The notes beneath the pieces are model-generated. The model had not been told where the DNA came from. It was given only the letters and a program-made list of their open reading frames with translations, and ran no database searches. Below are positions 27,549 to 44,828 of a stretch of 64,000 bases of DNA, piece after piece (position 1 is the stretch's first letter; the number at the start of each line of letters is the position of its first letter). The stretch covers positions 32,465-96,464 of the forward strand of contig JBDNFW010000039.1 in NCBI GenBank assembly GCA_041689615.1, in the 5' to 3' direction. Source of the DNA: Gammaproteobacteria bacterium (GTDB lineage Bacteria; Pseudomonadota; Gammaproteobacteria; Eutrophobiales; Eutrophobiaceae). The position numbers were made by a program, and so were the translations under genes.

Positions 27549-29129
27549 TTATTTATCAATTTCTAGTAATACTGAAATAATTTCTCCGCCATATTCAGGC
27601 GGGTAAAAAGTTTGTCGTAATATCCACGAAATATTTTTTACTCTATCAACTGGATACAAAGGCTCATGTTCTCTAAGTGCAGATGCCACAATAAACATAT
27701 AATGGCACTGCGTTAATTCATTTATAAAATCTTCTTGACCGACGTTTTGCAATGGTGGAATAATAACTTTACGCTTACTGTATAACATGACAAATTCTTG
27801 ATGGATTGAATAAATGCATTTATCCTGAGGAACAACTTCTTTTATATCAATGGTTGATTCTATCAACCTCTTTTTAAAAATTAGATGCTTAACCATTTTT
27901 TCAGTATCCATACCAGTAAGCCAGTTCCTATCATTAGTAAGAGACTGTATATTTTCCCCCGGGTTAGTTAACAATCGATTTGTCATAAACATTAAACATG
28001 GAAAAATTGTAATTACAATCAGAAATGGAATGGACAGATTAAAGAAAATACTTATATTTTTATTATTCTGCTTAAATAAAGTTGAAGTAGTAACTTGTAT
28101 ATAAAACAATACAAATGGAATTATGACATAGATAAAACGAACATTTTGATCTGAAAAATTCCAGATAAAAATCAATCCTAGATAAATTACAACATAGAGC
28201 GCATCTAATGATAAAATAATAATGCGCCGGTATAAAGCAAAACACGTTGTTAATATTACAAGACCTGCTAAAACAGCTGTTCCAATGTTAATTACCGTAT
28301 TAAATTGTAACTGTAAACCCAACCAGAACGTTTTTAATTGAAACTGTATTATTGTACTGATTCCAGCCCAAACTCCTCCATACGCATCAATAAAACTTTT
28401 ATATCGTTCCAGAAATGCATTATTAAAATAGGACTGTTCATAATCTATACCATTACTTACTAAAGACCATATCAACCAGGGTATTAATATGATTATTGCA
28501 GTAAAGACAATTTTTGTTTTATCCCGACGATAAACAGCAATAAGTAAAGCAATAACGAGTGATATCCCAACGCTTCTGGTTATTAATGCAAGTCCACATG
28601 TAAATGCGGAAAGATATAGCCAATTATCCGTGCTATTTTTAGTCTTGGAAAAGCACCACAATGTCAACAATACAAATAGTAAGTATAAATTTTCACTCCA
28701 TAACTCAGTGGAAAATAATAGAGTAGATGGAAGAAGTAAAAATAATATCGCATTTATCAGAGCATTAGCTTTAGCTAGACCCTCTTTAACCTGCCAATCA
28801 ATATAAAATAAACATACAGGCAACAGAATTATGGAGGTGGCAACACTTGCCAGAATTATATTGTCACTCCCTGCGCCAAAAATACTTAAGTAAAATGGGT
28901 ACATTGGAGGAAAGCTTCTGTATGCCATCGCTTGTTCCAAGACAGGCAAATTCTCAGCGTTCCAATTTGAAAAATAGTCTGCTTGTAGTAAGTATATAAA
29001 GCTGTCAGTCCAAAAGCCGGGGTTATCATTAAATGAAATAAAAAAATGAATAATCAACGAAAATAATAATAAACCCCATAAACAGTAATACCAATTAAAG
29101 GACAAGTAACCTTTAGTTCGCTTTATCAT
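27549..29129 (-). CDS. Polytopic GT-C-like membrane protein with C-terminal soluble domain (paralog of 30526-32082)
   Basis: 526 aa. WTDSFIYLLQADYF...PMYPFYLSIFG aligns with HDS...SANYMLMALYL...PLFPFVLALTG of the 518-aa protein at 30526. Confidence 0.5.
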   Translation of the reverse strand: MIKRTKGYLSFNWYYCLWGLLLFSLIIHFFISFNDNPGFWTDSFIYLLQADYFSNWNAENLPVLEQAMAYRSFPPMYPFYLSIFGAGSDNIILASVATSIILLPVCLFYIDWQVKEGLAKANALINAILFLLLPSTLLFSTELWSENLYLLFVLLTLWCFSKTKNSTDNWLYLSAFTCGLALITRSVGISLVIALLIAVYRRDKTKIVFTAIIILIPWLIWSLVSNGIDYEQSYFNNAFLERYKSFIDAYGGVWAGISTIIQFQLKTFWLGLQLQFNTVINIGTAVLAGLVILTTCFALYRRIIILSLDALYVVIYLGLIFIWNFSDQNVRFIYVIIPFVLFYIQVTTSTLFKQNNKNISIFFNLSIPFLIVITIFPCLMFMTNRLLTNPGENIQSLTNDRNWLTGMDTEKMVKHLIFKKRLIESTIDIKEVVPQDKCIYSIHQEFVMLYSKRKVIIPPLQNVGQEDFINELTQCHYMFIVASALREHEPLYPVDRVKNISWILRQTFYPPEYGGEIISVLLEIDK

Positions 29130-29350
29130 AATTTTATATTAATTTATTTATGTATATAAACATGGGATTTAATTATAATAACATCTAAAAATTAGCCTTA
29201 TGGTACTGTTTGTTTTTCATTTTAATAGTATTAGTGTGACATATTTCTAAAAATACACTTTTTCTAAGACTACACTCTTAAATATCTTGTTTAATGAGAT
29301 CATCATAATTATTATTGATCACACATCCTATAACCCATAATCTACAGATA

Positions 29351-30286
29351 ATGAATAAACGAATATTAGTTACAGGCGGAGCCGGCTTTCTAGGTTCTCA
29401 CCTATGTAAAAAACTACTTGATGAAGGGAATGAGGTCATATGCCTTGACAATTTTTATACTGGCTCAAAGAAAAATATTATTTCCCTATTGGGGAATCCA
29501 TATTTTGAAGTTGTTCGTCATGACATCACTTTCCCAATATATCTTGAGGTTGATCAAATTTACAATCTAGCTTGTCCCGCTAGTCCAGTTTATTACCAAA
29601 AGTTTCCTATACAAACTACAAAAACTAGCGTATCTGGTGCAATTAATATGCTTGGCTTGGCAAAACGTTTAAATATTCCAATTTTACAAGCCTCTACAAG
29701 TGAAATTTATGGAGATCCAATTGTGCACCCTCAGACGGAGGATTATTGGGGAAATGTAAATTGCACAGGTATTCGCTCTTGCTACGATGAGGGGAAACGT
29801 TGCGCTGAAACACTATTTTTCGATTATCATCGAGAATTAAAATTAGATATTAGAGTGGCAAGAATATTTAACACTTATGGCCCTAACATGGCTGTCAATG
29901 ACGGAAGGGTAATTAGCAACTTTGTTATGCAGGCTTTAAATAATGAAGACATAACAATTTATGGTGACGGAAGTCAAACACGCTCACTTTGCTATGTGGA
30001 TGATCTAATTAACGGTTTAATCAAATTAATGAATAAACCAAATCATCATGAGCCTACTAACTTGGGTAATCCTAATGAACTATCAATCAAGGAAATCGCG
30101 GATAAAATATTGGAATTGACCGGTAGTAAATCGAAACTCGTTTTAAAACCATTGCCTGAAGATGACCCAAAACAACGATGTCCGGATATAACAAGAGCTA
30201 AACAGGATTTAAATTGGGAACCGATTATAGACTTGGATACAGGCTTAACAAATACCATAAATTACTTTAAGAACATTCCTATATAG
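29351..30286 (+). CDS. uxs: UDP-glucuronate decarboxylase (UDP-xylose synthase, SDR family; ArnA-decarboxylase-domain-like)
   Basis: Near-collinear with eukaryotic UXS1: [66 protein letters not shown] at 29351 preferred over the TTG at 29315 used by the ORF track. Confidence 0.85.
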
Positions 30287-30525: not shown

Positions 30526-32082
30526 TTGATAAACCATAGTTTTACAAACTCCGGCATTAGAAAGTATACTTTTTGTTTCATATCGATAATTGCTCTCATA
30601 ACATATACAACCATAGCAATTAAATTTGTTTGGCACGATAGTCTCACAACTTTTGCCAGCGATAGCGCAAATTATATGCTAATGGCGCTTTACCTTTCTC
30701 CATGGGAAGAAGCAAGCTTGCCAATACAGTCGCTATGGCCATATCAAGAATACCCGCCACTTTTCCCATTTGTACTGGCACTTACCGGTGTTGTACACAA
30801 CATGACTGCAGCACATGTATTTACATTATTTATACTAATCGCTGCATTGCCACTCATTTACTTGTTCGCAAAACAATGCTTTGCAACAAAATGGCAAGCT
30901 ATGTTTATAACTTCAATATTTATCATTAGTCCATCAACATGGATGAATATACTAGGAATTTTAAGTGAAAATTTATATATATTCTTAAGTTTTTTAATTT
31001 TAATATTGTTTAATAAACAGAAATTTCAAACTATTAGAATGGCTGTAATTTTTGGAATTCTTTTATCAGCCCTTATGTTAACCCGCACCATTGGCGTTGC
31101 AATGTTTGCAGCATACTTTTTCTCTGGACTTTTACTCTACAAAAGAAAAGAGATAAATAAAATTATTTATTTGATGCCCATATTTATTACAATATTTATC
31201 AATGGCATAGCAAAATTACTTCACCAATCCAGCATACCTTCTCAATACATAAGACAATTAAAAGATCTCGAATTTGGAAATCAATTTATTGCCATAATTG
31301 ACGCATGGTTTTCATCTTGGCAATTTTATTGGACTGATAATTTAATGCTTCCTTATGCAATCGTTCTTGTGACAGGCTTACTTGCATGTTTTGGTCTGCT
31401 ATATCGTTTAACCACACTGAAATTTGATGCTATTTACGTTACAGTATATTTACTAATACTTTTATTGTGGCCTCACCCTGGACAAGCATTACGGTTCATA
31501 TATCCAATCCAAGCAATTCTACTGATATATGCTTTTTACTTTTTAGATTATTTATGTAAAACATTTTCAAGCACATCATCTTATAAACCTATTACTATAT
31601 TACTTTTGTTAATGTTCTCCGTTGTTTTACCACCATTATCCTTTGCGTATAATAGATATAATGTTGGTTCTGACAATGAGTATAATCATATAAAAGAATT
31701 TTATAGGTTCCCAGATATAAAAAATGCACAAATAAATGCTGGCATACAAACCGCTATGTTTAATGACATGGTAGACATCAAAAATGACACTAATGAAAAT
31801 GACTTAATATTATATTTTAATTCTTCCTATATCGCTTTATTAGCTAATAGAAAAAGCAAAGATATTAAATTTAATTATATAGATGATAATTTATACACTG
31901 TTGATGATGTTAGTGACGCCGACTATATCTATCTAAGTAGATTACATCCTAGAAAAACCAGAGAAAATATTAATGGTTTGGCAACATTGAAATATTTTGC
32001 TGAAAAAACAGAAATAATATGGACGCACTATTCTGATGAAAATAATGAGCCCGTATCTATTTTTTTAAAAGTTGTAAAATAA
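30526..32082 (+). CDS. Polytopic GT-C-like membrane protein with C-terminal soluble domain
   Basis: 518 aa. Paralogous to the 526-aa protein on the opposite side of uxs. Confidence 0.5.
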   Translation: MINHSFTNSGIRKYTFCFISIIALITYTTIAIKFVWHDSLTTFASDSANYMLMALYLSPWEEASLPIQSLWPYQEYPPLFPFVLALTGVVHNMTAAHVFTLFILIAALPLIYLFAKQCFATKWQAMFITSIFIISPSTWMNILGILSENLYIFLSFLILILFNKQKFQTIRMAVIFGILLSALMLTRTIGVAMFAAYFFSGLLLYKRKEINKIIYLMPIFITIFINGIAKLLHQSSIPSQYIRQLKDLEFGNQFIAIIDAWFSSWQFYWTDNLMLPYAIVLVTGLLACFGLLYRLTTLKFDAIYVTVYLLILLLWPHPGQALRFIYPIQAILLIYAFYFLDYLCKTFSSTSSYKPITILLLLMFSVVLPPLSFAYNRYNVGSDNEYNHIKEFYRFPDIKNAQINAGIQTAMFNDMVDIKNDTNENDLILYFNSSYIALLANRKSKDIKFNYIDDNLYTVDDVSDADYIYLSRLHPRKTRENINGLATLKYFAEKTEIIWTHYSDENNEPVSIFLKVVK

Positions 32083-32098: not shown

Positions 32099-33091
32099 TT
32101 AAGATATGGTTTCTTCAAATAAATTTTTATATTCTTCTATCATTTTTTTTAATGTGAAATTTTTTTCTATTTTCTCTCTATTGTAGGCTCCCATTTCTTT
32201 TCGTAACTGAACTGATTCTGCTAATGTATCTATACATTCTGCAAATAATTCTGCCTTGTTAATAGGACATAAAAAACCGCCTTTTTTATCATCCACAAGT
32301 TCTGGTAATGATGAGCAATCTGTCACAACCACTGGCAAACCGCATGCCATTGCTTCTGCAACTGCGAGTCCAAATCCTTCTCTCACAGTCGGAGACACCA
32401 GAATATCTACTTCATTATACAAAGATGGCATAGCACTATGATCAACACTACCAACACATATTGCTTTCGGATGTTTTATCTGCCTTTTATTTGAACGCAG
32501 CCCTGATGTGTAAAGAAGTTCTATATTTGATTCAGTTCGATCAAGTATTTTGGGGATTAAATCTACACCTTTTTTTCTACTAAGATCTCCACTAAATAGG
32601 ATTTTTATCTTGTTGTCACTTTTTCTTTTTGTCCTTTTAGGAATAAATATATTTTCATCAACACCATTATGAATAACTCTTATTTCTTTTGTATAATTTA
32701 ATTCTGACTTTACTAAACTAGCCAAATACTGACTACCACATGTAATAACTTTTGATTTTTTTAATGCTTGTTCAATGAAAAACTTTAAATCAGTTCGATA
32801 ATGAATTCTCTGTGCAATAGATGAATACGGTTCTATATATCGGTCAAGAACGAAACTGTGAAATGTTGAGACCAAAGGCTTACTGGGTAATTTCGAAAAA
32901 ATAGCATAATCAATTGGAGCATGGATTAAATCTGCTGTCTTATCACCAAAATAGCGTATTGCAGGTGGGAAATATGACCAATTAGGATGGTAAGGTATTA
33001 CCTTGTAATTACTAATATTTGATTCCAACGATTTATGCGCAATATATGCACCACTTCCATAAGCAACGGGGCTACTAATTTTCATAATCAC
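32099..33091 (-). CDS. GT4 (GT-B fold) glycosyltransferase
   Basis: 330 aa. EX7E motif region REGFGLAVAEAMACGLPVV. Confidence 0.8.
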   Translation of the reverse strand: MIMKISSPVAYGSGAYIAHKSLESNISNYKVIPYHPNWSYFPPAIRYFGDKTADLIHAPIDYAIFSKLPSKPLVSTFHSFVLDRYIEPYSSIAQRIHYRTDLKFFIEQALKKSKVITCGSQYLASLVKSELNYTKEIRVIHNGVDENIFIPKRTKRKSDNKIKILFSGDLSRKKGVDLIPKILDRTESNIELLYTSGLRSNKRQIKHPKAICVGSVDHSAMPSLYNEVDILVSPTVREGFGLAVAEAMACGLPVVVTDCSSLPELVDDKKGGFLCPINKAELFAECIDTLAESVQLRKEMGAYNREKIEKNFTLKKMIEEYKNLFEETIS

Positions 33092-33122: not shown

Positions 33123-33911
33123 CTAATCATCTTTTTTAAAAAAAGTATTATAGGGCAAGGTTCTTAAAAGAAATCTTGTTTTAAATGGGTAATATAAAAT
33201 CCAGAATATAATTTGCATTAAACGCCATACAATATTTTTTTCATTTTTTGCCTGCAAACTGATTTCTTCATGCAACCTTGTCGATAAATATTTATCAGTA
33301 CTACAAGGTCCGTCTCCTCCCATGAAAGCTACGGGTATTTTTTCAAAACTGACACTGCTTCGTATATTTATAGCACGATAGAGGAAATCATAATCCTCGG
33401 TGATCGTATATTTAAGATCGTAATCTCCAATTTCATCAAATAATTTCCGATTAACGAAGATGCCCTGATGCGGAAATATATTCCTGAATCTAATCCACCA
33501 TAAATGCTGAATAGGGTTAATTTGTTCGACGTTATCGGGAGATAACTCCTTTATAATCGGAAAACTATAGATATCAAGTTTTTTAGCAGAGATAATTTCA
33601 TGTACTTTTTTCAGTACATTCTCATTTAATAAATAATCGTCTGCCTGGATCGCGATAATATATTCACCCGTTGATAAGTTTACCGCTTTATTAAAGGCAT
33701 CCGGCACGCCCTGATCAACTTCGGATATCCACTTCAAATTATAGGTATTTTTATAAGAAGCAAGAATCTCCAGCGTATTGTCAGAAGAAGCACCATCAAT
33801 CACAATATGCTCATAATCCTGATAAATTTGATTTTTGATGGATTCAATCGTTCTCTTTATGGATCCCCCTTTATTCAAAGATGCTGTAATAACAGTAAAA
33901 TAAGGAGCCAT
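33123..33911 (-). CDS. GT2 (GT-A fold) glycosyltransferase, soluble type
   Basis: 262 aa. FTVITASLNKGGSIKRTIESIKNQIY...IVIDGASSDNT. DxD in AIQADDY. No C-terminal TM. Confidence 0.78.
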   Translation of the reverse strand: MAPYFTVITASLNKGGSIKRTIESIKNQIYQDYEHIVIDGASSDNTLEILASYKNTYNLKWISEVDQGVPDAFNKAVNLSTGEYIIAIQADDYLLNENVLKKVHEIISAKKLDIYSFPIIKELSPDNVEQINPIQHLWWIRFRNIFPHQGIFVNRKLFDEIGDYDLKYTITEDYDFLYRAINIRSSVSFEKIPVAFMGGDGPCSTDKYLSTRLHEEISLQAKNEKNIVWRLMQIIFWILYYPFKTRFLLRTLPYNTFFKKDD

Positions 33912-33949: not shown

Positions 33950-34849
33950 TTATAACGCAGGATTTATCCATGTTTGAATTCCATCTCCAAACTCAATCTT
34001 TCCAAATGGCGTATCATTTATTTTATTACGCTTATAATCTCGTAAACAACTCCAATTATTATTTAACATCAATTCACGAATATTTTCTTCTATTTTTACA
34101 GAATGTGTTCCAATATGTAATCGCTTAACTTTTTTATTTATTATATCGGCAGATGATTTTAACACATCAAACTCTTTACCCTGTATATCCATATGGATCA
34201 TATCAACATAATCAATGTCTGATAAAATTGAATTTAACGTATAAGTTTTAACATTTAAAACATCAAGATTATATTGTCCTGTCTTGAATTTTTTCTGACG
34301 CCAGCACCTTATCTTCCTATAAAGCATATTTACTAAATTATCATTTACAATTGATTGCCCATAACATTTACTAGGATCTCCTATTTCAAATTGTACTATT
34401 TTTTCAGTATCATCAATTGCACCTTGATATATCTCATGATTTTCCACATTTATATTATTCATCTCTAGATTATCAATAACCCAGCCAAAGTGAGTAGGCT
34501 CTGCCTCGACTATTACAAGTTTAGTAAAAAGCGGCCTGAGTATTGAAGCTATATAATAAGCAATAACTGACCATCTTGCATATCCCGCACCTAATTCAAC
34601 AAAAGTATAATTATCCGTAGCGCACTCGATACTTTCACAAATATCTAGCCATTCAAATACAGCGTCATTATTCGTTGAAATTTCTTTTTTGCAGTAAAAA
34701 TCAAAACATTTTTTATCAGTGAAATTTATTTCTCTATTTAATTCCACATCATACTTCTTTAGTTGAACAGAGCCACAGCGAGTATGAATAATATCTGAAT
34801 CAAGATGTCCTTCTTTAAAGTTAAATCTATTAAATATCTCTGGATACAT
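33950..34849 (-). CDS. FkbM-family methyltransferase domain protein
   Basis: 299 aa. FVELGAGYARW...LVIVEAEPTHFGWVIDNL pattern typical of the FkbM MTase domain. Confidence 0.5.
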   Translation of the reverse strand: MYPEIFNRFNFKEGHLDSDIIHTRCGSVQLKKYDVELNREINFTDKKCFDFYCKKEISTNNDAVFEWLDICESIECATDNYTFVELGAGYARWSVIAYYIASILRPLFTKLVIVEAEPTHFGWVIDNLEMNNINVENHEIYQGAIDDTEKIVQFEIGDPSKCYGQSIVNDNLVNMLYRKIRCWRQKKFKTGQYNLDVLNVKTYTLNSILSDIDYVDMIHMDIQGKEFDVLKSSADIINKKVKRLHIGTHSVKIEENIRELMLNNNWSCLRDYKRNKINDTPFGKIEFGDGIQTWINPAL

Positions 34850-34955
34850 TTGTGGCTCACCTAATTATTTTTAATCAATAATATCTATATGCTAAATGAA
34901 CCGTCGGTATATTTGCATATGCTTATAGATTAACTCTGTCACTAAAATTATTTTA

Positions 34956-36035
34956 TTACAAAATTATTTCTTGCAACTCTATTTTATTCAAACCCCAATC
35001 GTCATCATTATGAATAATCGGTGCTTTTGATTTATACATTTTCGATACCCAGTCATCAAGTTCTTTAATAGACATAACCGGAACTTTATTCTTTTCAAGA
35101 CGTTTGTATAAACTTCTATCTTTTTCTGATTTTGGCGACCAACCACTATCATGTTCAATATGATAAATAGGAGCTTCAATCATTATTTCTTTAATACCTG
35201 CAAAAAAAGCAATATAACAAACCAAAGAATCTAGATGCAGGGAAAACAATTCCAACTCAGGAGCACCTTTTATATCAAACCAATCATCTCTCGACATTAA
35301 ATGAAAATCACCACAAGCATTAGTATGCAGTTTCATCCATTGTCTATGTTTTTTTGTTAACTTATAAAAATACATAACAATGCGACTATCGCGATATTTT
35401 TCTAGCAACTCAATCCCGGGAATATATTTGCGTCTCTTTCCGACAAAAGGAATCGTAGGAAATGGTGGGATAAAGGGTAATGCATTTGAGTTCTCACAAT
35501 CAATTATTCCCCTTTTTTCATTAATTCGAATCGTATGATCCTTACAAACATTAAGTAGATCGTTAAACTTGTTATATTTGAAGATATCTCTTGAGACATC
35601 ATGCCTGTCCACACGATAGTAATTACCTTTTTCCAATTTTGTCGAAGACAAGTATTCCATTAATTCATTTGAAAAAATGATGTCGACATTTGTTGACAAT
35701 ATAAATTCGCCTTTAGCACGAACAATTCCAACGTTTTTTGCAATCATCTGAAATAGAGGAAGACCGTCAGAATATTTATATTGATTATGCAATTCTGAAG
35801 GCACATGGATTATTCTGACATTACAAAATGAATTTTTTTTATCCCAATTTAACACGTCTACTAAACGCGGTTCATTTTCAGGAGGATTCCATTCAACCAG
35901 AATCAATTCCGTTGATAATTTATATTTTTCACACTGAATAAAAAGGCCATCAATGAATATTTGCATCCGCTTAATTAAATCACCGCCATGATTATCATTA
36001 CGAGATGTTGCTATTATAGATATTCTTGGATTCAT
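34956..36035 (-). CDS. Hypothetical protein, possible GT-A-like glycosyltransferase
   Basis: 359 aa. N-terminal ISIIATSRNDNHGG resembles the GT2 start. Possible DxD in TNVDIIF. No TM. Confidence 0.3.
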   Translation of the reverse strand: MNPRISIIATSRNDNHGGDLIKRMQIFIDGLFIQCEKYKLSTELILVEWNPPENEPRLVDVLNWDKKNSFCNVRIIHVPSELHNQYKYSDGLPLFQMIAKNVGIVRAKGEFILSTNVDIIFSNELMEYLSSTKLEKGNYYRVDRHDVSRDIFKYNKFNDLLNVCKDHTIRINEKRGIIDCENSNALPFIPPFPTIPFVGKRRKYIPGIELLEKYRDSRIVMYFYKLTKKHRQWMKLHTNACGDFHLMSRDDWFDIKGAPELELFSLHLDSLVCYIAFFAGIKEIMIEAPIYHIEHDSGWSPKSEKDRSLYKRLEKNKVPVMSIKELDDWVSKMYKSKAPIIHNDDDWGLNKIELQEIIL

Positions 36036-36137
36036 AAATATTATATTGCTAATATATAAGATAATTTTTTATACTGCATCGAGACTTGTAAACTCCCATG
36101 TCTTCTAAGCGACATTAAAATGCAATCTGTATCGAAC

Positions 36138-36917
36138 TCATGATAGTTTACAAGTTATTAAAGTATGCCAACCTAATTCCCTGCATAAAGCACCAAACAT
36201 TTTTTCAGACATAACTTCAAACCAAGGTTCAAGCTGATACTCATAATTTATATATTTCCCTACTATAAATGGAAATATATGATCCTGATGCATGTCAATA
36301 ATCTCAAAATCCGCTAATAATTCACGCAACTCATCCTGAGAATACGTATATGCAACAGGACATCCAGATTGTGCTTCTGGTTGGTCAAAGCCACTTTCTA
36401 TCATAATATTCTTCCATGAGTTTTTCGCATACATCATTAACCGAAATTCAGATTCATTACCCATATACTGCTTAACACTCTCTATCACTTCTCCTGGGTT
36501 TGGCGTGTGATGTATAACGCCAAAAGAATATACTAAATCATAATTTTCTATTGGAACGATTGATAATAAATCTTCTGCATTTCCTTGATAAAATTTTCCA
36601 TCTAAGTTAAAAACATCAAATCTTTTTTTAGTAAGCTCTAGACTTTTATCTGAGAGCTCAATAGCTGAATATTTTGCCCCTGCCCTTGCAAAATTTATTG
36701 CATCAGTACCCAACCCACATCCTATCTCAAGCACTTTCTTGCCTTTCCACTTTTCAAAATCGGCAAAGTGAGGAATGTGAGGCTCAACAAAATATTTTCT
36801 TTCTTCAACCTCATCGAAATATTTTTTTGTTCCTATCTCTGATAGTGAATGTCTTATATTACAAGGTCGCTTATTCCAGTAATCACGGACATTATTAATA
36901 TTATCGTTACCATTCAT
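36138..36917 (-). CDS. Class I SAM-dependent methyltransferase
   Basis: 259 aa. KKVLEIGCGLGTDAINFARAGA. Confidence 0.78.
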   Translation of the reverse strand: MNGNDNINNVRDYWNKRPCNIRHSLSEIGTKKYFDEVEERKYFVEPHIPHFADFEKWKGKKVLEIGCGLGTDAINFARAGAKYSAIELSDKSLELTKKRFDVFNLDGKFYQGNAEDLLSIVPIENYDLVYSFGVIHHTPNPGEVIESVKQYMGNESEFRLMMYAKNSWKNIMIESGFDQPEAQSGCPVAYTYSQDELRELLADFEIIDMHQDHIFPFIVGKYINYEYQLEPWFEVMSEKMFGALCRELGWHTLITCKLS

Positions 36918-36973
36918 ATCTTATTTTCACCTATCAATTTTCAAAATAAAAAATATTTTAATACTAACTTACA

Positions 36974-37852
36974 TTACTTTTTTGATGCTATTAACCAATC
37001 TGAACACATCCATTTCGGCAACCATGCTGCTATTTTCCCATTCAAACTTAACAAGGCATCACTTTCTCTCATAAGTATGTTTATAATATTTCCTGCTAAA
37101 AATGTACGGCTTTTAAACTCTATAATTTTATAACCACTACTTCTTAATAACTGTTTTATATTGCGAGATGTAAACTTATTACAGTGAATTGTTTCTTCAT
37201 CTAATGAAGAACATGATGCATTACAATATTCTGGGGAACGTTCAATTTTATGACGCTTTAACAAACTCTTTGAACCATATCGTTCTACTACTGCTTGCTG
37301 ACATAGATCAATGTAACTAACAAATTTCGGATAACGCTCATAAAAAATACTTTCAAATTCGAAATAACCATATCCATTAGGTACCGTTATTAACAAAAGT
37401 CCACCATCCACTAATACATCTTTCATTTCCTTTAATAATTCATCAGGTTTTTCCAAATGTTCCAAGACCTCCGAACAAATTACAATATGGAATTGTTCAG
37501 TATCAGTCAAAGTAGCTAACGATTGACAATAGAAGGATACATTAGAATAATTTTTCGTCATGCTAATTGCTTTATTAATGGATGCTTCGTTTACATCAAC
37601 ACCCTTAACATTGTACCCAATATCTGCAAGCGGAATAGTCACAGCAACACCAGTGCCACAACCAACATCTAGAATTTTAATGTCTTCAACACTAAAACCT
37701 AGACTACTTCTAATAGCTTCGATATGTTTTAAAAAAAATCGGAGGCGTTTAATAATGCCAAAGGCATCTTCTCTAAAACTATAACCGGAAAAATCAATCG
37801 TAGATGGAAATACATCAACACACTCTTGATTCAAGATTGGTGATGTATTCAT
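36974..37852 (-). CDS. Class I SAM-dependent methyltransferase
   Basis: 292 aa. KILDVGCGTGVAV. Confidence 0.78.
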   Translation of the reverse strand: MNTSPILNQECVDVFPSTIDFSGYSFREDAFGIIKRLRFFLKHIEAIRSSLGFSVEDIKILDVGCGTGVAVTIPLADIGYNVKGVDVNEASINKAISMTKNYSNVSFYCQSLATLTDTEQFHIVICSEVLEHLEKPDELLKEMKDVLVDGGLLLITVPNGYGYFEFESIFYERYPKFVSYIDLCQQAVVERYGSKSLLKRHKIERSPEYCNASCSSLDEETIHCNKFTSRNIKQLLRSSGYKIIEFKSRTFLAGNIINILMRESDALLSLNGKIAAWLPKWMCSDWLIASKK

Positions 37853-38577
37853 TCGGTCCTTATAAGATCAAACCAGTTAAAATCATTATTGTGAAAATTA
37901 AAACTGAGAATCACATTAAAATTAGCGGGACTAAGTCTTTCTTGTAGTTTATGGAGATCATACCATTCCATCCAAGGTGCTCCTCCATCTGTTTTCGCTC
38001 CCCATTTATCTAATGGCATTTCACCTTCCTGCACCCAGCGTTCTCTTGGATAAGCTAATTCAATCCATCGACCTCCGACCGGCAAATGCTCTAATAATAA
38101 CTGTGCTTCCTCACCTGCAATATCAAAAGGAAGATTAATCATAGAACCTTGACACCAAATTACATCAAAATTGCTTGGTAATTTTTTTAACGACTCAAAT
38201 TCTTCTAAGTAAAGAAATTCAACATTTGTTAGCCCTAGTAAGCAACAAATTCTTTTCAGAAGTTCAAGGTTCGATTGTACGATATCTACAAATGTCACAT
38301 TCGCTCCATTTTGGGCAAATGTAATTCCATCTATGCCAAAACCACTACCCACATCCATAATCTTCTTATTCTTAAAGACCTCCATATACAGACTGTGATA
38401 CCAGCCTCTAACTTCAAAATATTTTCCTGTGGTAGCATCTATCTTTGTTTTATTCCACAATTCTATCAATTCTTTATCCGAAATATTTTTCAATTCAGAT
38501 GTAGTAATTCGGCTATGTCCCGCAGGCACTTCACACCATTTATCTCGCAACTTTTCCAATGGTTTATTCCAGTTCAA
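37849..38577 (-). CDS. Class I SAM-dependent methyltransferase
   Basis: 242 aa. KIMDVGSGFGIDGITFAQNGANVTFVDI. 4-bp overlap with the next methyltransferase gene. Confidence 0.78.
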   Translation of the reverse strand: MNWNKPLEKLRDKWCEVPAGHSRITTSELKNISDKELIELWNKTKIDATTGKYFEVRGWYHSLYMEVFKNKKIMDVGSGFGIDGITFAQNGANVTFVDIVQSNLELLKRICCLLGLTNVEFLYLEEFESLKKLPSNFDVIWCQGSMINLPFDIAGEEAQLLLEHLPVGGRWIELAYPRERWVQEGEMPLDKWGAKTDGGAPWMEWYDLHKLQERLSPANFNVILSFNFHNNDFNWFDLIRTE

Positions 38578-38642
38578 TTAATATTCTCCACATTCAATTT
38601 TAAGTAAATACTGAAATCATCATCCATATATATATATCAGAA

Positions 38643-39758
38643 CTAGGTTAGTCTATACATGTCTAAAAACTGCGTGCTATTTCCATAAAAAAACGGAATG
38701 CTCTTAATGTATTTTTTTAAGAAACTGTCATGTTTTGTTAACTTGTTCGGAAACGTTATAAATTTTTTTTTATAATGAATCTTATTTGACTTAATATCAA
38801 CGATCCTTAATTCATTTTTATCCGCAATTGAAAATGCATATATGTCACCATCAATTTGTATAGAATCATGTAGCCATTTTGATTCTATACTGAACATATT
38901 TTTGACATTTCTATTTTTATCTATAACCAGTAATTTCCCTTCCGTACTATCAGTAAAGTATATTAAATCTTTGTCACTGACTCTTGCTCCATGGCATCCA
39001 ACATGTCCTGATATAAGCTCAACATATTTTCCAGTATCCAGATTAAAACACCCTACAGCTCCAGGTATTAATGCTGATACCACTATATTATTTTTCTTTT
39101 TATCCGGATACGCAGAATTAATATGAGCTATCTGCAAATCATTTTTTATATAATGATTTCGAAGATCCATTTCTTCAGTAATCTCATAATTCTCTCCATA
39201 TATCTCTTTAGGCATTCTAATATTTTTCTTTACTTCACCCGAATCCAAATCAAGAATCATAATAGCATCAGAAGCCGAAGCCGAAATAACGGCAAGTTTT
39301 TCTGTTACCATAGAAACCGTATGTAAGCCGGCAAAATGCGGATGGCTATATGTCTTATAAAGATAACAATCTGTTTTATTTAAATTATTATATTTTGTTA
39401 TAGATTTATGAAGTTTCCATAATTCAATTGATGCTACATAAACTACTATTATAGTTTTTTCATCTACTAATACAGCATGTTGTATTTTTCTATTTGAACA
39501 TACAGAACCGAGCATTTTAAAAAAATAATTATTATTTAAATCTTTTAATGCCAAATAAAAACTAATACCACCTGTATACAAGATGGATTCTTTTATTGGC
39601 AACAACTGTTCAAATGGAATTAAATTTTGCAACCGATCAGGGGACGCATATCTTTGTTCCAATGATTTTCTAGCACACTCGGAAAAATCCGTTTTTCTAC
39701 TTGAATGGGTTAAAGAAATAACACCAAATTTTATTTTTTCAGACACAGATTTAATCAT
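38643..39758 (-). CDS. Hypothetical protein, probable beta-propeller (SGL/NHL-like)
   Basis: Repeated blade-like segments, e.g. GHVGCHGARVSDKDLIYFTDSTEGKLLVID. Start moved to the second Met (MIKSVSEK), giving an 8-bp overlap with the wzt stop instead of the 68 bp in the ORF track. Confidence 0.4.
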   Translation of the reverse strand: MIKSVSEKIKFGVISLTHSSRKTDFSECARKSLEQRYASPDRLQNLIPFEQLLPIKESILYTGGISFYLALKDLNNNYFFKMLGSVCSNRKIQHAVLVDEKTIIVVYVASIELWKLHKSITKYNNLNKTDCYLYKTYSHPHFAGLHTVSMVTEKLAVISASASDAIMILDLDSGEVKKNIRMPKEIYGENYEITEEMDLRNHYIKNDLQIAHINSAYPDKKKNNIVVSALIPGAVGCFNLDTGKYVELISGHVGCHGARVSDKDLIYFTDSTEGKLLVIDKNRNVKNMFSIESKWLHDSIQIDGDIYAFSIADKNELRIVDIKSNKIHYKKKFITFPNKLTKHDSFLKKYIKSIPFFYGNSTQFLDMYRLT

Positions 39759-41028
39759 GTGTTTTTGAGCTATTATTAAGCTTCCATTTTTGCTGCATAG
39801 AATAATATCCACCACCAAATTTTTTGGAACCTTGAATTATAAAATTTTTTATACTGAAATTACTGATTGATGCGGCAATCGAAGAAAAATTATTCGGTAA
39901 AACAAAAAGAACGACAGAATAGTTACCAGGAACTAACCATAATCCATTAATATATATACTCAATTGATATTTCTCATTAGCGTTAATAGATATTTTATCT
40001 ATCATGTTTTCGCTGTTATTGCCTGATATGACCATTTTTTCCTTATGAAACTGTAAACATACAATAATATTATCTAACTTCTGAGAAGAATTAATTGAAC
40101 AAGTTAAATTGACCCCAATATTAGGCTCAAAATATTCAACCTCCTCATTATTTTCATTAGTAAATTTAAATTCACTAATTGTAATAATCGGGTCTTTAAT
40201 ATTTACATCAAACTCTGGCGAAACTTCTGAAGCACTCATTGTTGATAATGCATCTTTTTGAAATTGTTTTATTACTTGTGTTGTTTCACCTATACTGCTG
40301 ATAATGCCATCTTTCAAATAAATACATCGGCTAGCAAGTGTTTCTACAACACGTAAATTATGTGACACAACTAATACTGTACGACCATGGCTTGATGCTT
40401 CACTAATTTTTTTTATACATTTTTTTTGAAACCCAATATCTCCAACGGCAAGCACTTCATCTATTAATAATATTTCTGTTTCCAGTTGCGCCGCTACCGC
40501 AAAAGCTAAACGCATATACATCCCACTCGAATAATGCTTCACTGGTGTATCGATAAATTTTTCTATTTCAGAAAAACTAACTATTTCATCAAATTTTGAA
40601 TTAATTTCTGTGCGTTTCATACCTAGAATCACACCGTTTAAGAAAATATTCTCACGACCTGTTAATTCAGGATGAAAGCCGGCTCCAACTTCCAAAAGAG
40701 AACCAACACGACCTAGAATTTTTGCACTACCTGAAGTTGGCTCAGTAATACTTGTAAGAATTTTTAATAAAGTACTTTTCCCTGCTCCATTCCTGCCGAT
40801 AATCCCAATTACTTCACCTTTTTTTATATCAAACGATACATCTTTTAATGCCCAGATTGTTTCACCTAGCTCTACAGCTGAATGACCACCCAGGTATGAT
40901 TTCAATCTTCGAAACGGAGAGGTGACTTTTTCTTCTATAGACTCGCGCAAAGTATTATATCTGGCCTGCTTTCGGCCTATCCTGTAGGACTTACTTAAGT
41001 CCTCTACGTGAATTGCAATTTCGTTCAT
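39751..41028 (-). CDS. wzt: ABC transporter ATP-binding protein Wzt/KpsT/TagH type with ~170-aa C-terminal extension (putative glycan-terminus binding module)
   Basis: Walker A GRNGAGKST, signature YSSGMYMRLAFA, Walker B LLIDEVLAVGD. Residues after ~250 are non-NBD and beta-rich. Confidence 0.85.
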   Translation of the reverse strand: MNEIAIHVEDLSKSYRIGRKQARYNTLRESIEEKVTSPFRRLKSYLGGHSAVELGETIWALKDVSFDIKKGEVIGIIGRNGAGKSTLLKILTSITEPTSGSAKILGRVGSLLEVGAGFHPELTGRENIFLNGVILGMKRTEINSKFDEIVSFSEIEKFIDTPVKHYSSGMYMRLAFAVAAQLETEILLIDEVLAVGDIGFQKKCIKKISEASSHGRTVLVVSHNLRVVETLASRCIYLKDGIISSIGETTQVIKQFQKDALSTMSASEVSPEFDVNIKDPIITISEFKFTNENNEEVEYFEPNIGVNLTCSINSSQKLDNIIVCLQFHKEKMVISGNNSENMIDKISINANEKYQLSIYINGLWLVPGNYSVVLFVLPNNFSSIAASISNFSIKNFIIQGSKKFGGGYYSMQQKWKLNNSSKTHD

Positions 41029-41039
41029 GCTAGGTATTT

Positions 41040-42404
41040 TTAACTATCTTGCCATAAGGCCGAAAGTTTTCTGCCATTTTCGTCATCATCGATACTTCGA
41101 CCAGCTGGATAATATTTAATATTAGCTTTATTACCCAGCTCTTCATCCAGTATTCTCCAGAAGTCAAATACGATTACTTCTTTGTTATTAAAAGACGCTG
41201 CCGTTATCTTTTTAAATTCTGGATCTGCAGTTGTAATAAGAAATACTTTTGCTTGTTCCAGACACTCTTCAAGGCTATCCAAAACAACGATACGATTCTT
41301 AAATTCACTATTTATAGCTTCTGAAGCTAATGGGTCGAATGCAACAACTCTTGTTCCAGATTTGACTAGTGATTCAGCAAGATATGTCCCTTGTGATTCT
41401 TCAATAACATGTGAAAAAGGTTTATAGGCCATCCCCAACACTGCAACTGTGTCTGATTGAGATATTATACTTTTAATCTGAGATACAATTTTTGGAACGA
41501 TAGCTTTGTTTGCTTTATCCGTTGTTTCTGCTATTCCCGCATCTACACCAAGTTCTCTTGAAAAATACCCAAGAGCAACATTATCACGAGGAAAACATGG
41601 GCCGCCATAACCGAGAGCTCCGGTAAGGTACTTCTTCCCAATTCTAGAATCACTACCAATAGCATTAGTAACTATATCAACATCCCCTCCAGGAATTTTT
41701 TCACAGAGCTCGCGTAGCATATTTGCATACGTTATCTTTGTTGTTACAAATGTATTCAAGGCGACCTTTGTCAACTCAGCATTTTCTAGACTCATACGTC
41801 GACAAGGTGGTGCATTTGACATTATCTCTGAATACGACTTCTCCAGAATATCTCCAGATTTTTTATCAAATTCACCTACCAGAGTAAAATCTGGATTTAA
41901 AAAATCCCTGATTATGCTACCAAGTGCAATAAACTCTGGGCTGTAACATAGACCAAAATCAATTCCACACTTTTTACCCGACTCCTCTTCTAAAACAGAA
42001 AGAAGTCCATATCGTGTAGAACCAGGTAAAACTGTACTTGTAAGAACAACTAGATGATAGGTTTGCTTTTCTGCAAGCGCACGCCCTATTTCGCGAAAAG
42101 CCCATTTTGCATATTGCAACGAAAATGCACCTTTATCATCACTTGGTGTTGGAACAATCACAAATGAAACATTAGAATTTACTATTGCTTCTGTATGACT
42201 TAATGTCGCTTTTAATCTCGTTTTATTTGCCTTAATCGTTTTCTCAAGATCAGTCTCAGGCACAGGAGCTAAACCTTGATTAACCAAATCCACAGTGTGT
42301 TTACTAATATCCACACCAATAACATCGAACCCTTTACTTGCAATAGCAGCTGCCATACTGCATCCAAGCTTACCAAGACCTATAACTGAATATTCTATGC
42401 CCAT
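41040..42404 (-). CDS. Nucleotide-sugar 6-dehydrogenase (UDP-glucose/GDP-mannose dehydrogenase family; best resemblance to AlgD-type GDP-mannose dehydrogenase)
   Basis: 454 aa. GLGKLGCSMAA Rossmann motif. VIGVDISKHTVDLVNQG, LTSTVLPGST, SGKKCGIDFGLCYSPEF, GYGGPCFPRD catalytic Cys motif. Confidence 0.8.
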   Translation of the reverse strand: MGIEYSVIGLGKLGCSMAAAIASKGFDVIGVDISKHTVDLVNQGLAPVPETDLEKTIKANKTRLKATLSHTEAIVNSNVSFVIVPTPSDDKGAFSLQYAKWAFREIGRALAEKQTYHLVVLTSTVLPGSTRYGLLSVLEEESGKKCGIDFGLCYSPEFIALGSIIRDFLNPDFTLVGEFDKKSGDILEKSYSEIMSNAPPCRRMSLENAELTKVALNTFVTTKITYANMLRELCEKIPGGDVDIVTNAIGSDSRIGKKYLTGALGYGGPCFPRDNVALGYFSRELGVDAGIAETTDKANKAIVPKIVSQIKSIISQSDTVAVLGMAYKPFSHVIEESQGTYLAESLVKSGTRVVAFDPLASEAINSEFKNRIVVLDSLEECLEQAKVFLITTADPEFKKITAASFNNKEVIVFDFWRILDEELGNKANIKYYPAGRSIDDDENGRKLSALWQDS

Positions 42405-42455
42405 AATTTTCCCATCTTTCTTTTTGTTGACTTAATAATTCGAATTAAACATCTT

Positions 42456-43439
42456 TTACGAGCAGTGACTTTTATTCACTTTATCTTCAATCCATTCATA
42501 TGTTTTTTCCATTCCAATTTTAAGTGACTGTGTAGGCTTCCAATTTAATTTATCTTTTATTAAGTTATTATCAGAATTTCTACCCCTGACACCTAATGGG
42601 CCTTCAATGTGATTAATCGTCAATTTTTTACCTGCTATATCCATAGCCATTTCTGCCAATTGATTAATCGTAACCATTTCATCTGAACCAATATTTACCG
42701 GACCTGTCCAGTCAGAACGCGTTAATATATTTGTTCCTTCTATACATTCGTCTATATATAAAAATGATCGCGTTTGTTTTCCATCACCCCATATTTCAAT
42801 TTCACCATTATTTTTTGCTTCCACAACTTTTCTACATATCGCTGCAGGCGCCTTCTCCCGACCGCCACACCATGTTCCTTGCGGGCCAAAAATATTATGA
42901 TAACGAGCTATTCTTACTTCTATGCCGTGATTTCTCTGGTATGACAAATACAGTCGTTCACTAAATAATTTTTCCCACCCATATTCACTATCAGGCTCTG
43001 CCGGATAAGCACTCTCTTCGGAACATTTTGGATTATCTGGATCCAGCTGATTGTATTCTGGGTATATACAAGCAGATGAAGAGTAAAATATTCTTTTTAT
43101 ATTTCTTTTATGACAAGCATCGATTAGATTTAAATTAATGAGTGCTGAATTTTGCATAATATGTGCATCATTCTCCCCCGTAAATATAAAGCCGGCACCA
43201 CCCATGTCCGCAGCAAATTGATAAACCTCATCGAATCGACAATCGATAATGGAACGACAAATAGACTGTTCTCGTAAATCACCAATAACAAAATCATCTG
43301 CATGTGTCTCATCAAACTCTGGATATTTAAGATCAACACCACGCACCCAATACCCTTCTTTCTTTAATCGTTTAACCATATGGCTTCCTATGAAACCACC
43401 CGCTCCACATACCAATACTTTTTTCATGTTATCCTCCAA
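42456..43439 (-). CDS. SDR epimerase homologous to GDP-mannose 3,5-epimerase (GME)
   Basis: 327 aa, collinear with plant GME: ADMGGAGFI, SSSACIYPE, YPAEPDSEYGWEKL, GTWCGGREKAPAAICRK, IWGDGKQTRSF, PVNIGSDEMVTINQLAEMA, GPLGVRGRNSDNNLIKDKLNW. Confidence 0.8.
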   Translation of the reverse strand: MEDNMKKVLVCGAGGFIGSHMVKRLKKEGYWVRGVDLKYPEFDETHADDFVIGDLREQSICRSIIDCRFDEVYQFAADMGGAGFIFTGENDAHIMQNSALINLNLIDACHKRNIKRIFYSSSACIYPEYNQLDPDNPKCSEESAYPAEPDSEYGWEKLFSERLYLSYQRNHGIEVRIARYHNIFGPQGTWCGGREKAPAAICRKVVEAKNNGEIEIWGDGKQTRSFLYIDECIEGTNILTRSDWTGPVNIGSDEMVTINQLAEMAMDIAGKKLTINHIEGPLGVRGRNSDNNLIKDKLNWKPTQSLKIGMEKTYEWIEDKVNKSHCS

Positions 43440-43442
43440 ATA

Positions 43443-44279
43443 TTAAATAACATCTGCAATTTTTTTCTCTGTTCTACAGAAAAAGAGCAGGCCCGTTAAT
43501 AAAATAAATAACGAAACAAATGCCGATACTATCAACATAAGTCCAGGCGCATTTTCTTCTGTCCCAAATAACGACCACCTAACCCCTTCAATCACTCCAA
43601 CCATCGGATTAATTCCATAAACTGAACGCCATGGTTCGGGTAACATACTGCTGGGATACACTACTGGTGATGCAAATAACCATAGCTGAATTAAGAAAGG
43701 CACCACATGACGGACATCTCGAAAAAGCACATTCATTGTTGCAAACCATAATCCAACACCTAAAGATGTAACACATGCTAATAAAATAAAGAATGGGATC
43801 CATAATATATTCATGCTTGGCAACATCCCGAAGAAAGGCATCATTAATAAAAGAACGATAAACGCCAGTATAAAATCAACAAAACCAGATAAGACAGATG
43901 CAATTGGAATAATTATTCTTGGAAAATACACTTTCTTTATTAAATTTGAATTACTAACAAGACTTTCTGAGCATTGCGTTAAACCATTTGCAAAAAATAT
44001 CCATGGAACCAAGGCTGCAAAACTAAAAATTGTGTAAGGAATATTATCAGATGGAATTTTAGCGATATAACCAAAGAAGATAGTGAATATGATCATTGCT
44101 AGTACTGGCTGAATTATCGCCCATGATGCACCTATTATGGTTTGTTTATAACGAACTTTTATATCACGCCAAATAAAAAAATATAATAACTCACGATATT
44201 TCCATATTTCAACGAGTTTGTTAAACGAGCAACCTTTACTCGATTTAATGACAGTTATGTGACAAGGCGCTTCATTCAT
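43443..44279 (-). CDS. wzm: ABC-2 type transporter permease Wzm
   Basis: 278 aa, six TM. N-terminal IWKYRELLYFFIWRDIKVRYKQT typical of Wzm/KpsM. Confidence 0.85.
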   Translation of the reverse strand: MNEAPCHITVIKSSKGCSFNKLVEIWKYRELLYFFIWRDIKVRYKQTIIGASWAIIQPVLAMIIFTIFFGYIAKIPSDNIPYTIFSFAALVPWIFFANGLTQCSESLVSNSNLIKKVYFPRIIIPIASVLSGFVDFILAFIVLLLMMPFFGMLPSMNILWIPFFILLACVTSLGVGLWFATMNVLFRDVRHVVPFLIQLWLFASPVVYPSSMLPEPWRSVYGINPMVGVIEGVRWSLFGTEENAPGLMLIVSAFVSLFILLTGLLFFCRTEKKIADVI

Positions 44280-44826
44280 GATCAGGTGTAATTTCTTCCC
44301 ATAATATAAGCTGGGGTCTGCCTTTTAATTTAGGTATAAGTTCCTCATATTCTTCTTTCTTTAGAACTAATGTTCTAATTTTTCTACTAATATATTTTTC
44401 TGTTTTTTTAACTACATCATCTAGATTAGATTGATCAATATCTCCAACCAAAACTAAATCTATTAACCCAGTGTCTTTCCCTTGTGCATAGTCATCAATC
44501 AAAAAAGCTAAGTCTAAATTTCCTAATCTTTCAAGAATACTTTCAAGAATCTGATCCATGCCCAAAGCTTTTTTCACCATTGATTGAAGCTCAGGAAATA
44601 AAGGGTGCTCAGTATTAGCCCGATAATTAATCTGCCGACCTGATTTAGTACTTTTTAATAAACCGGCATCGCTTAATTGCTGTAGTTCTCCAGAAACTTG
44701 GCTAGGCGATATAGTAAATTCATTAGCTAATTCACGTAAATAAGCCTGCTGTTGCGGATTTAGAAATAAACGCATCAAGATACTGATGCGTGTTTTAGAA
44801 GAAATTAGTGAAGATAGTATCGACAT
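44272..44826 (-). CDS. Winged-helix (ArsR-like) transcriptional regulator with C-terminal nucleotidyltransferase-like domain
   Basis: 184 aa. TRISILMRLF...QAYLRELANEFTISPSQVSGELQQLSDAGLL HTH. C-terminal DDYAQGKDTGLIDLVLVGD. 8-bp overlap with wzm. Confidence 0.6.
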   Translation of the reverse strand: MSILSSLISSKTRISILMRLFLNPQQQAYLRELANEFTISPSQVSGELQQLSDAGLLKSTKSGRQINYRANTEHPLFPELQSMVKKALGMDQILESILERLGNLDLAFLIDDYAQGKDTGLIDLVLVGDIDQSNLDDVVKKTEKYISRKIRTLVLKKEEYEELIPKLKGRPQLILWEEITPDHE

Positions 44827-44828
44827 TT

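Follow-up and report, generated by a model that had tools for sequence, protein, structure and literature searches.

A GDP-mannose 3,5-epimerase beside a distinct 6-dehydrogenase in a Wzm/Wzt operon: a probable two-enzyme route to an activated L-hexuronic acid

Sugar-nucleotide 6-dehydrogenases have well-known partners: Ugd pairs with a UDP-glucuronic acid (UDP-GlcA) 4-epimerase, UXS or ArnA, and in Haloferax the dehydrogenase AglM pairs with AglP, a hexuronate methyltransferase. The logic is that of a 6-dehydrogenase which, together with a short-chain dehydrogenase/reductase (SDR) and often a methyltransferase, diversifies an activated uronic acid. Here we describe a pair that shares this logic. 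It lies in a stretch of 64,000 nucleotides (the window) from a gammaproteobacterium of the Eutrophobiales (assembly GCA_041689615.1, contig JBDNFW010000039.1, positions 32,465 to 96,464), where an SDR from a family named GDP-mannose 3,5-epimerase (GME) and a 6-dehydrogenase stand adjacent and co-directional, enclosed by the genes of a glycan exporter in the order wzm–SDR–dehydrogenase–wzt, all on the minus strand. In the Ugd-type pairs the dehydrogenase acts first and on a UDP-D-sugar, whereas the evidence at this locus favours a GME acting first, on a GDP-sugar, with L-configured products. We propose that the two enzymes form a conserved module that would make an activated L-hexuronic acid for a Wzm/Wzt-exported glycan. 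The known route to L-guluronate employs the mannuronan C5-epimerases AlgG and AlgE, which act on the finished polymer; if L-gulose is the sugar oxidised here, the same residue would be made at the nucleotide level, before polymerisation.

The closest described relatives of the SDR are the plant enzyme (AtGME of Arabidopsis, PDB 2C59) and the one bacterial GME to have been characterised, MfGM35E of Methylacidiphilum fumariolicum, for which a bacterial glycan-synthesis context like that of the window SDR was proposed (PMC6678494). Characterised GMEs give their products in a ratio of ~80:15:5, and GDP-altrose has also been reported as a product (PMC8787198). According to a 2022 review the family is defined by Ser143, Tyr174 and Lys178, by the acid-base pair Cys145/Lys217, and by Arg306, Arg243 and Asn203; the acid-base pair sets GM35E apart, given that GalE has neither residue and GMER has Cys/His, while Arg306 (Lys in GMER) acidifies the cysteine and Arg243 contacts the diphosphate (PMC8787198).

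By every one of these measures the window SDR is a genuine GME-family enzyme and an ordinary member of a known, abundant family. A phmmer search of the PDB aligned residues 4-324 with AtGME (2c59; E=1.4e-104, 353 bits; 53% identity), the next-best SDR class reaching no more than 99 bits (~1e-27), and the protein stayed far below the cut-offs of the NCBIfam models for GDP-fucose synthase, GalE and others. All eight defining residues are kept, and are invariant in 90/90 aligned homologs, the window protein included. The NAD motif GxxGxxG reads GAGGFIG; the Ser-Tyr-Lys triad lies in SSSAC and YGWEK, aligned to AtGME; the acid-base pair is found in SSSACIYPE (Cys) and GGREKAPAA (Lys); and Arg306, Arg243 and Asn203 stand in GVRGRNSDN, QTRSF and YHNIFGP. 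The motifs by which a first-pass annotation of the letters alone had recognised the protein (SSSACIYPE, GTWCGGREKAPAAICRK and GPLGVRGRNSDNNLIKDKLNW) are all present, both reading frames lie on the minus strand where it had placed them, and its view that the SDR is collinear with plant GME is borne out along the full length, the window protein being without the N- and C-terminal extensions of the 377-residue plant enzyme. Two of its statements need amendment. The length of 327 aa that it gave is that of the maximal open reading frame (ORF; 42456..43439), which opens with a TTG that falls within the ribosome-binding site; the true start is almost certainly the ATG at 43427 (323 aa), since a GGAGG Shine-Dalgarno sequence lies 6 nt before it in tatttGGAGGataacATG, and the public record calls the same start. 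Nor does the statement that the L-hexose precursors made by GME are very rare in bacteria hold at the level of genes: a protein search recovered at least 8,000 GME homologs at E<1e-30, and the top 120 (77-100% identical) come from Nitrospirae, Bacteroidales, Desulfobacter, candidate division WS5 and others.

The dehydrogenase is a different matter. Its membership of the superfamily is clear from the three Pfam domains PF03721, PF00984 and PF03720 and from TIGR03026 (314.9 bits against a cut-off of 189.8), the sole NCBIfam model passed, and the catalytic residues T124, E157, K210, N214, C268, D272 and K324 (AlgD numbering, used below unless stated) are kept. It had been described as AlgD-like, and the nearest solved relative is indeed nominally AlgD (PDB 1MV8/1MFZ), though by a slender margin: AlgD scores 208.6 bits and two UDP-glucose dehydrogenases score 198.9 and 190.0, or 254, 250 and 246 bits when the family profile is used in the same comparison. 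Five residues are specific to GDP-mannose dehydrogenases: His217, which binds the mannose O2'', Arg122, Ala263, Leu126 and Cys213 (Freas et al., PMC4794789). When 48 dehydrogenases from the collected loci were aligned with four PDB sequences, positions 217, 122, 263, 126 and 213 of the window enzyme proved to hold Val, Thr, Gly, Leu and Leu, and thus one of the five specific residues, whereas two true AlgD-type enzymes in the same alignment (loci L037 and L048) carry the AlgD residues. In a neighbour-joining tree AlgD groups with these two, and the window enzyme falls in a separate monophyletic branch outside both AlgD and the UDP-glucose dehydrogenases. We therefore reject an AlgD-type identity. 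What the two enzymes have in common is the superfamily, the three-domain layout, Cys268, Lys210, Asn214, Asp272, Thr124, Glu157 and Leu126, and presumably a GDP-linked substrate; the window enzyme differs further in being without the LNLS insertion, in the loop discussed below and in its setting, where there is no alginate operon.

Nor is the enzyme a canonical UDP-glucose dehydrogenase. The equivalog models for AglM, TuaD and Ugd are all missed by a wide margin (275.8 against 670, 212.5 against 700 and 77.7 against 757), and the residues that mark these enzymes (S. pyogenes numbering) are replaced: Tyr10 by Lys, the Lys at index 215 by Thr, the Pro at index 219 by Leu, the Glu145/Asp325 pair by Leu/Val and Arg327 by Glu. 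Solved or named examples (BceC 2Y0C, P. gingivalis 3GG2, P. islandicum 3VTF, AglM and TuaD) are ~27-30% identical to the window enzyme and share with it Gly263, a hydrophobic side chain at position 217, and the DxRIG arginine. Judged from its residues, then, the dehydrogenase is neither AlgD-type nor canonical UDP-glucose dehydrogenase, and belongs to a distinct family, which automatic annotation names UDP-glucose 6-dehydrogenase or labels generically.

Four motifs define this family – GLGKLG, (S/N)PEFIALG, GGPCFPRD and YKPx(S/T)xVxEES – all present in the window enzyme and all present together in 110 of the top 120 homologs. The signature residues are K10, T122, I159, L161, V217, P267, R271, Y323 and E331, and the family-specific substitutions number 16 (15 plus Tyr10→Lys). 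Canonical Tyr10 (GxGYVG) becomes Lys (GLGKLG); Lys/Arg122 becomes Thr; Leu159, Ile; Glu161 (NPEFLxEG), Leu (PEFIALG), together with Asp329→Val; Tyr211, Ile; Ser267, Pro; Lys271 (GGSCxPKD), Arg (GGPCFPRD); Phe323, Tyr; Asp/Asp at 328/329, His or Pro/Val; and Arg331 (TDDxRES), Glu (SHVxEES or TPVIEES). Relative to the UDP-glucose dehydrogenases the window enzyme shows these changes at 10, 122 (from Lys), 161, 267 and 271, and SHVxEES for TDDxRES. The residues concerned are far from incidental: Tyr10 is 98% conserved in the superfamily and implicated in thioester hydrolysis, Arg331 is 99% conserved and forms a salt bridge to the NAD+ pyrophosphate, and the Glu161/Asp329 pair lies by the diphosphate (PMC4794789). 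The PEFLRE loop of AlgD, which hydrogen-bonds the sugar O3'' and O4'' (PMC12381709), reads PEFIAL in the window enzyme; GME alters configuration at the neighbouring C3 and C5. The pattern is one in which the four-electron catalytic machinery is kept and the residues predicted to contact sugar, diphosphate and cofactor are remodelled. It is also widespread. When the protein library was clustered at 50% identity and the best 150 representatives were taken, all scored above 405 bits (AlgD and UDP-glucose dehydrogenases score ~250) and the canonical motifs TDDxRE and GxGYVG were found in 0/150. In six representatives (P0384, P0444, P0451, P0466, P0503 and P0520) an intein interrupts the catalytic GGPC|FPRD motif, its insertion point lying immediately behind the catalytic Cys.

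Evidence that the two enzymes belong together came from the distribution of their genes. A genome scan with the dehydrogenase gave 50 loci, among which we took as close relatives those with at least 56% dehydrogenase identity and counted a GME within 3 kb as linked. In 14/16 close relatives a GME, 49-82% identical to that of the window, lies directly beside the dehydrogenase, the hosts being Chromatiales, Anaerolineales, Pyrinomonadaceae, Chloracidobacterium, Blastocatellia, Desulfosudaceae and a Methanomicrobiales archaeon. Four more contexts added three with GME (Thermodesulfobacteriota, Anaerolineae and Latescibacterota) and one without, for a total of 17/20 close relatives against 0/20 dehydrogenases of canonical signature (Fisher p=2.6e-8), so that the linked sample spans Chromatiales, Anaerolineales, Acidobacteriota, Desulfobacterota, Latescibacterota and Methanomicrobiales.

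The reverse comparison gave a different result. Of 80 metagenomic GME loci we counted only those flanked on each side by 2.5 kb or more; the dehydrogenase was missing from 21-22 of these and present in 10, the enzymes of the latter belonging to a second clade of the same family (39-48% identity). There is no clade of linked GMEs, and dehydrogenase-linked and stand-alone GMEs are told apart by no active-site column, the best discriminating columns being peripheral. The dehydrogenase family is thus tied to GME, and GME is not tied to the dehydrogenase family. Divergence of the partners is discordant: measured against the window proteins, GMEs of 71-76% identity accompany dehydrogenases of 38-47%, and GMEs of 53-57% accompany dehydrogenases of 62-65%. 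The pairing has therefore been kept or re-created through replacement of partners and was not inherited as one cassette, which points to selection for the pairing itself. One locus (L128) encodes a canonical-type dehydrogenase beside a non-GME SDR and also a GME paired with a family dehydrogenase, and since both types occur in one cluster the family enzyme is not a redundant UDP-glucose dehydrogenase.

Fused genes further bolster the link. Among the 150 representatives are several long proteins, and examination of their domains revealed a natural dehydrogenase–GME fusion of 845 aa (P0429; positions 1716-4253 of locus L137, GCA_905331495.1 contig CAJNYV010001619.1, with a Methyltransf_22 gene nearby). 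Its dehydrogenase is 44% identical to that of the window and bears the family signature; its GME domain is 57% identical to AtGME and 45% to the window GME. Other representatives join the family dehydrogenase to a glycosyltransferase (GT) of family GT2 (P0389 and P0397) or GT26 (WecG/TagA-like; P0385 and P0495), to a family that we call c7 (P0392 and P0394), to a CN-hydrolase (P0413) or to an FkbM methyltransferase (P0474). The c7 proteins, which may be transferases, are of ~310 aa, begin MITLFSCPKPFRGH and have no Pfam match; they are not encoded in the window and recur beside the dehydrogenase in L003, L007, L009, L012, L081 and L127. GME itself occurs in frame with GT4 domains, one in L094 (748 aa) and two in L111 (1127 aa), in apparent GT4–GME fusions; in L111 the 6 kb to each side contain no dehydrogenase, and in L094 only ~0.5 kb lies downstream of the GME, so that a dehydrogenase there is possible. 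Taken together, adjacency and fusion make it very likely that GME and the dehydrogenase serve the same pathway.

Recurrent neighbours hint at what becomes of the product. A NadE-like PP-loop gene (PF02540) stands beside the family dehydrogenase in loci of Chloroflexi and of the candidate phyla radiation (CPR; L003, L011, L012, L069, L015 and L034) and, with the CN-hydrolase fusion, suggests that in those lineages a product carboxylate is amidated to a uronamide. Homologs of two methyltransferases of the window operon, MT259 and MT242, adjoin the dehydrogenase in at least 13 loci, among them L004, L007, L009, L010, L015, L034, L127, L130, L132 and L136 for MT259 and L135 for MT242 (46% identity), and GT2 homologs occur near the dehydrogenase–GME pair in 10 loci. 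A 359-aa protein of the operon had no sequence match in Pfam, NCBIfam or the PDB. Its AlphaFold2 model is confident (predicted local distance difference test, pLDDT, 89.9), and the top Foldseek matches are K4CP chondroitin polymerase (E=3e-9), GalNAc-T2, GlfT2 and heparosan synthase; this GT-A-fold model, along with the co-occurrence of the protein with dehydrogenase, GME and MT259 in L002, L009 and L132, makes it a candidate transferase for the new sugar.

These observations are accommodated by the following scheme, which we hold to be probable as a whole and in which nucleotide, sugar and step order are all inferred. GME would turn GDP-mannose into GDP-L-galactose as well as GDP-L-gulose. 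Using 2 NAD+, the dehydrogenase would then oxidise one of these L-hexoses at C6, to GDP-L-galacturonate or GDP-L-guluronate, and because oxidation at C6 is irreversible this step would pull the unfavourable epimerase equilibrium (80:15:5) forward. A glycosyltransferase – candidates are the 359-aa protein with the predicted GT-A fold, the GT2 and the GT4 – would add the sugar to a lipid-linked glycan, a co-conserved methyltransferase (MT259 or MT242) would modify it, and Wzm/Wzt would export the chain, the Wzt bearing a cap-binding Wzt_C domain. A GDP-L-hexuronate is the probable product, and that it is a carboxylate is supported by the NadE-like amidation neighbours and the CN-hydrolase fusion. 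A literature search of open-access papers and bioRxiv found no GDP-L-hexose dehydrogenase, GDP-L-galacturonate or GDP-L-guluronate, nor any account of this dehydrogenase family, and the placement of a GME inside a wzm/wzt operon beside a dedicated dehydrogenase is absent from both GME papers (PMC6678494, PMC8787198).

A central issue is the order of the two steps. Given a GDP-L-hexuronate as product, GME followed by dehydrogenase is the order that we regard as likely. In the reverse order the dehydrogenase, as a non-AlgD-type enzyme, would oxidise GDP-mannose to GDP-mannuronate, which GME would epimerise at C5, or at C3 and C5, to GDP-L-guluronate or GDP-L-galacturonate. This was the example offered by the first-pass annotation, whose suggestion of a GDP-L-hexuronate stands as the most plausible reading of the functional link, but whose route is the less likely one. 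It yields the same class of product, fits the adjacency data and the dehydrogenase–GME fusion equally well, and can draw on AlgD as nominally the best solved relative and on the shared Leu126. We nonetheless think it improbable. His217, with which AlgD binds mannose, is missing along with Arg122, Ala263 and Cys213, all four being present in the true AlgD-type enzymes; linked GMEs match stand-alone GMEs at every active-site column, and this lack of specialisation is unexpected if they accepted a C6 carboxylate; the dependence runs from dehydrogenase to GME and not the reverse; and it is the dehydrogenase, not GME, that is the partner fused to transferases (GT2, GT26 and c7), the apparent GT4–GME fusions coming from loci in which no dehydrogenase was seen. 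The chemistry, too, is unfavourable: a 4-keto-hexuronate is a beta-keto acid, and such an intermediate would be prone to decarboxylation.

It could also be that the two enzymes supply separate precursors, a divergent dehydrogenase of UDP-glucose (or another UDP-sugar) making a D-uronic acid and GME making L-galactose or L-gulose for one glycan that needs both. The DxRIG arginine and the KYL loop are typical of UDP-glucose dehydrogenases, the best NCBIfam equivalogs are the UDP-glucose dehydrogenases AglM and TuaD (far below cut-off as the scores are), the database name is UDP-glucose 6-dehydrogenase, and the top Foldseek match is a UDP-glucose dehydrogenase, albeit for a model of low confidence at the signature loops. 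It is hard to reconcile such a role with the replacement, in concert, of the 98-99% conserved Tyr10 and Arg331 and of the sugar/diphosphate loop; with the 0/20 canonical dehydrogenases found beside a GME; with the presence of both dehydrogenase types in L128; with the existence of a dehydrogenase–GME fusion; or with an adjacency that survives partner replacement across phyla, and we judge it unlikely. A different chemistry on the GDP-sugar is a fainter prospect still: the dehydrogenase might have GDP-D-altrose, the third product of GME (reported from GME; PMC8787198), as its substrate, might stop at the aldehyde, or might feed a decarboxylation to a GDP-pentose. Loss of the tyrosine of thioester hydrolysis to Lys and of the NAD+-pyrophosphate arginine to Glu would be in keeping with an altered reaction, but the retained catalytic Cys, Lys210, Asn214, Asp272, Thr124 and Glu157 fit the standard four-electron mechanism, the amidation-gene neighbours point to a carboxylate product, and no decarboxylase-type SDR is consistently linked.

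Several observations weigh against a GDP-L-hexuronate made by GME and dehydrogenase in turn. No GME was found within the examined flanks of three close relatives (L012, L018 and L136), nor of the CPR members L015, L034 and L036, and the linkage sample for the second clade (clade B) is biased, having been gathered through GME loci. The family keeps traits of UDP-glucose dehydrogenases (the DxRIG arginine, the KYL loop and the absence of an AlgD-type LNLS insertion), and the nucleotide is deduced from the link to GME. No manB or manC was found in the window or the neighbouring loci, a motif search for manC included, and L-galactose and L-gulose are not distinguishable as the sugar oxidised. Finally, the AlphaFold2 model of the dehydrogenase (pLDDT 76) falls below 50 exactly at the signature loops, and we draw no structural argument from it; Foldseek ranks 3vtf, then AlgD, then BceC, an order that is uninformative because AlgD is domain-swapped.

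The setting of the pair, which the first-pass annotation had correctly placed inside a Wzm/Wzt operon, is set out in Table 1. Wzm and Wzt flank the two genes directly on the same strand; the gaps between the four successive genes are ~15, 51 and 11 nt, and no terminator-like site was found on the minus strand in the interval from wzm to wzt. The matches of Wzm to the NCBIfam models of KpsM and galactan Wzm are below cut-off, and the C-terminal Wzt_C of the window Wzt is a glycan-cap-binding domain. The ArsR-like helix-turn-helix (HTH) gene probably heads the operon, since its stop overlaps the wzm start; a homolog also precedes wzm in L002. The inverted repeat directly upstream overlaps a promoter-like site (44888-44861, minus strand; TTGAAA, 16 nt, TATTAT), and the two together are a candidate autoregulatory operator and promoter of the wzm operon. 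Past wzt the order is the 391-aa ORF (which has no Pfam or NCBIfam match), three class I methyltransferases, the 359-aa protein, the FkbM methyltransferase, GT2 and GT4, so that a permease, a Wzt_C-bearing ATPase and glycosyltransferases (GT2, GT4 and GT-A-like) stand in one operon, as befits a Wzm/Wzt-dependent glycan pathway.

Table 1. Features of the wzm operon, with positions in the window.
Feature	Position	Strand	Basis or remark
GT4 glycosyltransferase	32099..33091	-	Pfam
GT2 glycosyltransferase	33123..33911	-	Pfam
FkbM-type methyltransferase	33950..34849	-	Pfam
359-aa protein, predicted GT-A glycosyltransferase fold	34956..36035	-	Fold search
Class I S-adenosylmethionine (SAM) methyltransferase MT259	36138..36917	-	Pfam methyltransferase matches
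Class I methyltransferase MT292	36974..37852	-	Pfam matches; NCBIfam UbiG-like, below cut-off
Class I methyltransferase MT242	37849..38577	-	Domain search; same neighbour family as MT259
391-aa ORF (371 aa in the public record)	38643..39818		Directly after wzt, overlapping wzt end
Wzt, exporter ATPase	39751..41028	-	ABC_tran (PF00005) E=3.6e-23; C-terminal Wzt_C (PF14524) 31.0 bits vs cut-off 30.4
Nucleotide-sugar 6-dehydrogenase, 454 aa; proposed GDP-L-hexose 6-dehydrogenase	41040..42404	-	TIGR03026, family signature, GME adjacency
GME homolog (GM35E), 323 aa	42456..43427	-	ATG at 43427; maximal ORF to 43439
Wzm, ABC-2 permease of glycan exporter	43443..44279	-	PF01061 E=2.9e-19
ArsR-like HTH protein	44272..44826	-	HTH_20 and HTH_5 matches; NF033788 48.6 bits, below cut-off 55
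20-bp perfect inverted repeat (CATGTACGCTATTATGTTCTA...TAGAACATAATAGCGTACATG)	44829..44875	.	Directly upstream of the ArsR-like HTH gene

The operon is part of a larger glycan island (window 30000-50000) of 30-36% G+C and strongly negative GC skew, set between flanks of ~40% G+C that carry the housekeeping genes leuA, ilvC, ilvB, proS, sucCD and nadE; the low G+C and the skew are compatible with horizontal acquisition. The flank protein SucC belongs to a cluster at 90% identity that includes proteins from Thiotrichaceae metagenome-assembled genomes, and the contig derives from Logan run SRR9199117. The gene for a type IV pilin (49393..49938; clean terminator at 49359-49345) lies just downstream of PilS and PilR (50123..53046) and is followed (45269-49938) by genes for a 622-aa multi-transmembrane/tetratricopeptide-repeat protein without Pfam match, an AglJ/Dpm1-like GT2 (46513..47385) ending in C-terminal transmembrane segments, and a GT4; pilin and the three following genes may form a pilin or protein glycosylation module. 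A second glycan-modification region (18852-32082) encodes three paralogous PMT_2/ArnT-like GT-C proteins (18852..20408, 20471..22027 and 27549..29129), two large membrane proteins without Pfam match (25672..27426 and 30526..32082), a GT2, a methyltransferase and an SDR (29315..30286) whose nearest NCBIfam models, all below cut-off, are dTDP-glucose 4,6-dehydratase, LegB and the UDP-xylose synthase/ArnA type.

The interest of the locus rests on the dehydrogenase, which probably has a new substrate specificity, and not on the GME. Chances seem to us evenly balanced that the enzyme represents a large, widespread and uncharacterised group of GDP-L-hexose 6-dehydrogenases, found in bacteria and archaea and comprising no fewer than 150 clusters at 50% identity, which, with GME, makes GDP-L-galacturonate or GDP-L-guluronate independently of polymer-level C5-epimerases, the product often being methylated or amidated. 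If this is true, an undescribed activated L-hexuronic acid goes into the surface glycans of many environmental bacteria and archaea, and the enzymes that make it are currently mislabelled as UDP-glucose 6-dehydrogenase in the databases. The family would constitute a new specificity class in a well-studied dehydrogenase superfamily and provide a nucleotide-level route to L-guluronate or L-galacturonate; it would account for how bacteria drive an unfavourable equilibrium of GME forward, and would offer biocatalysts for rare L-sugar acids.

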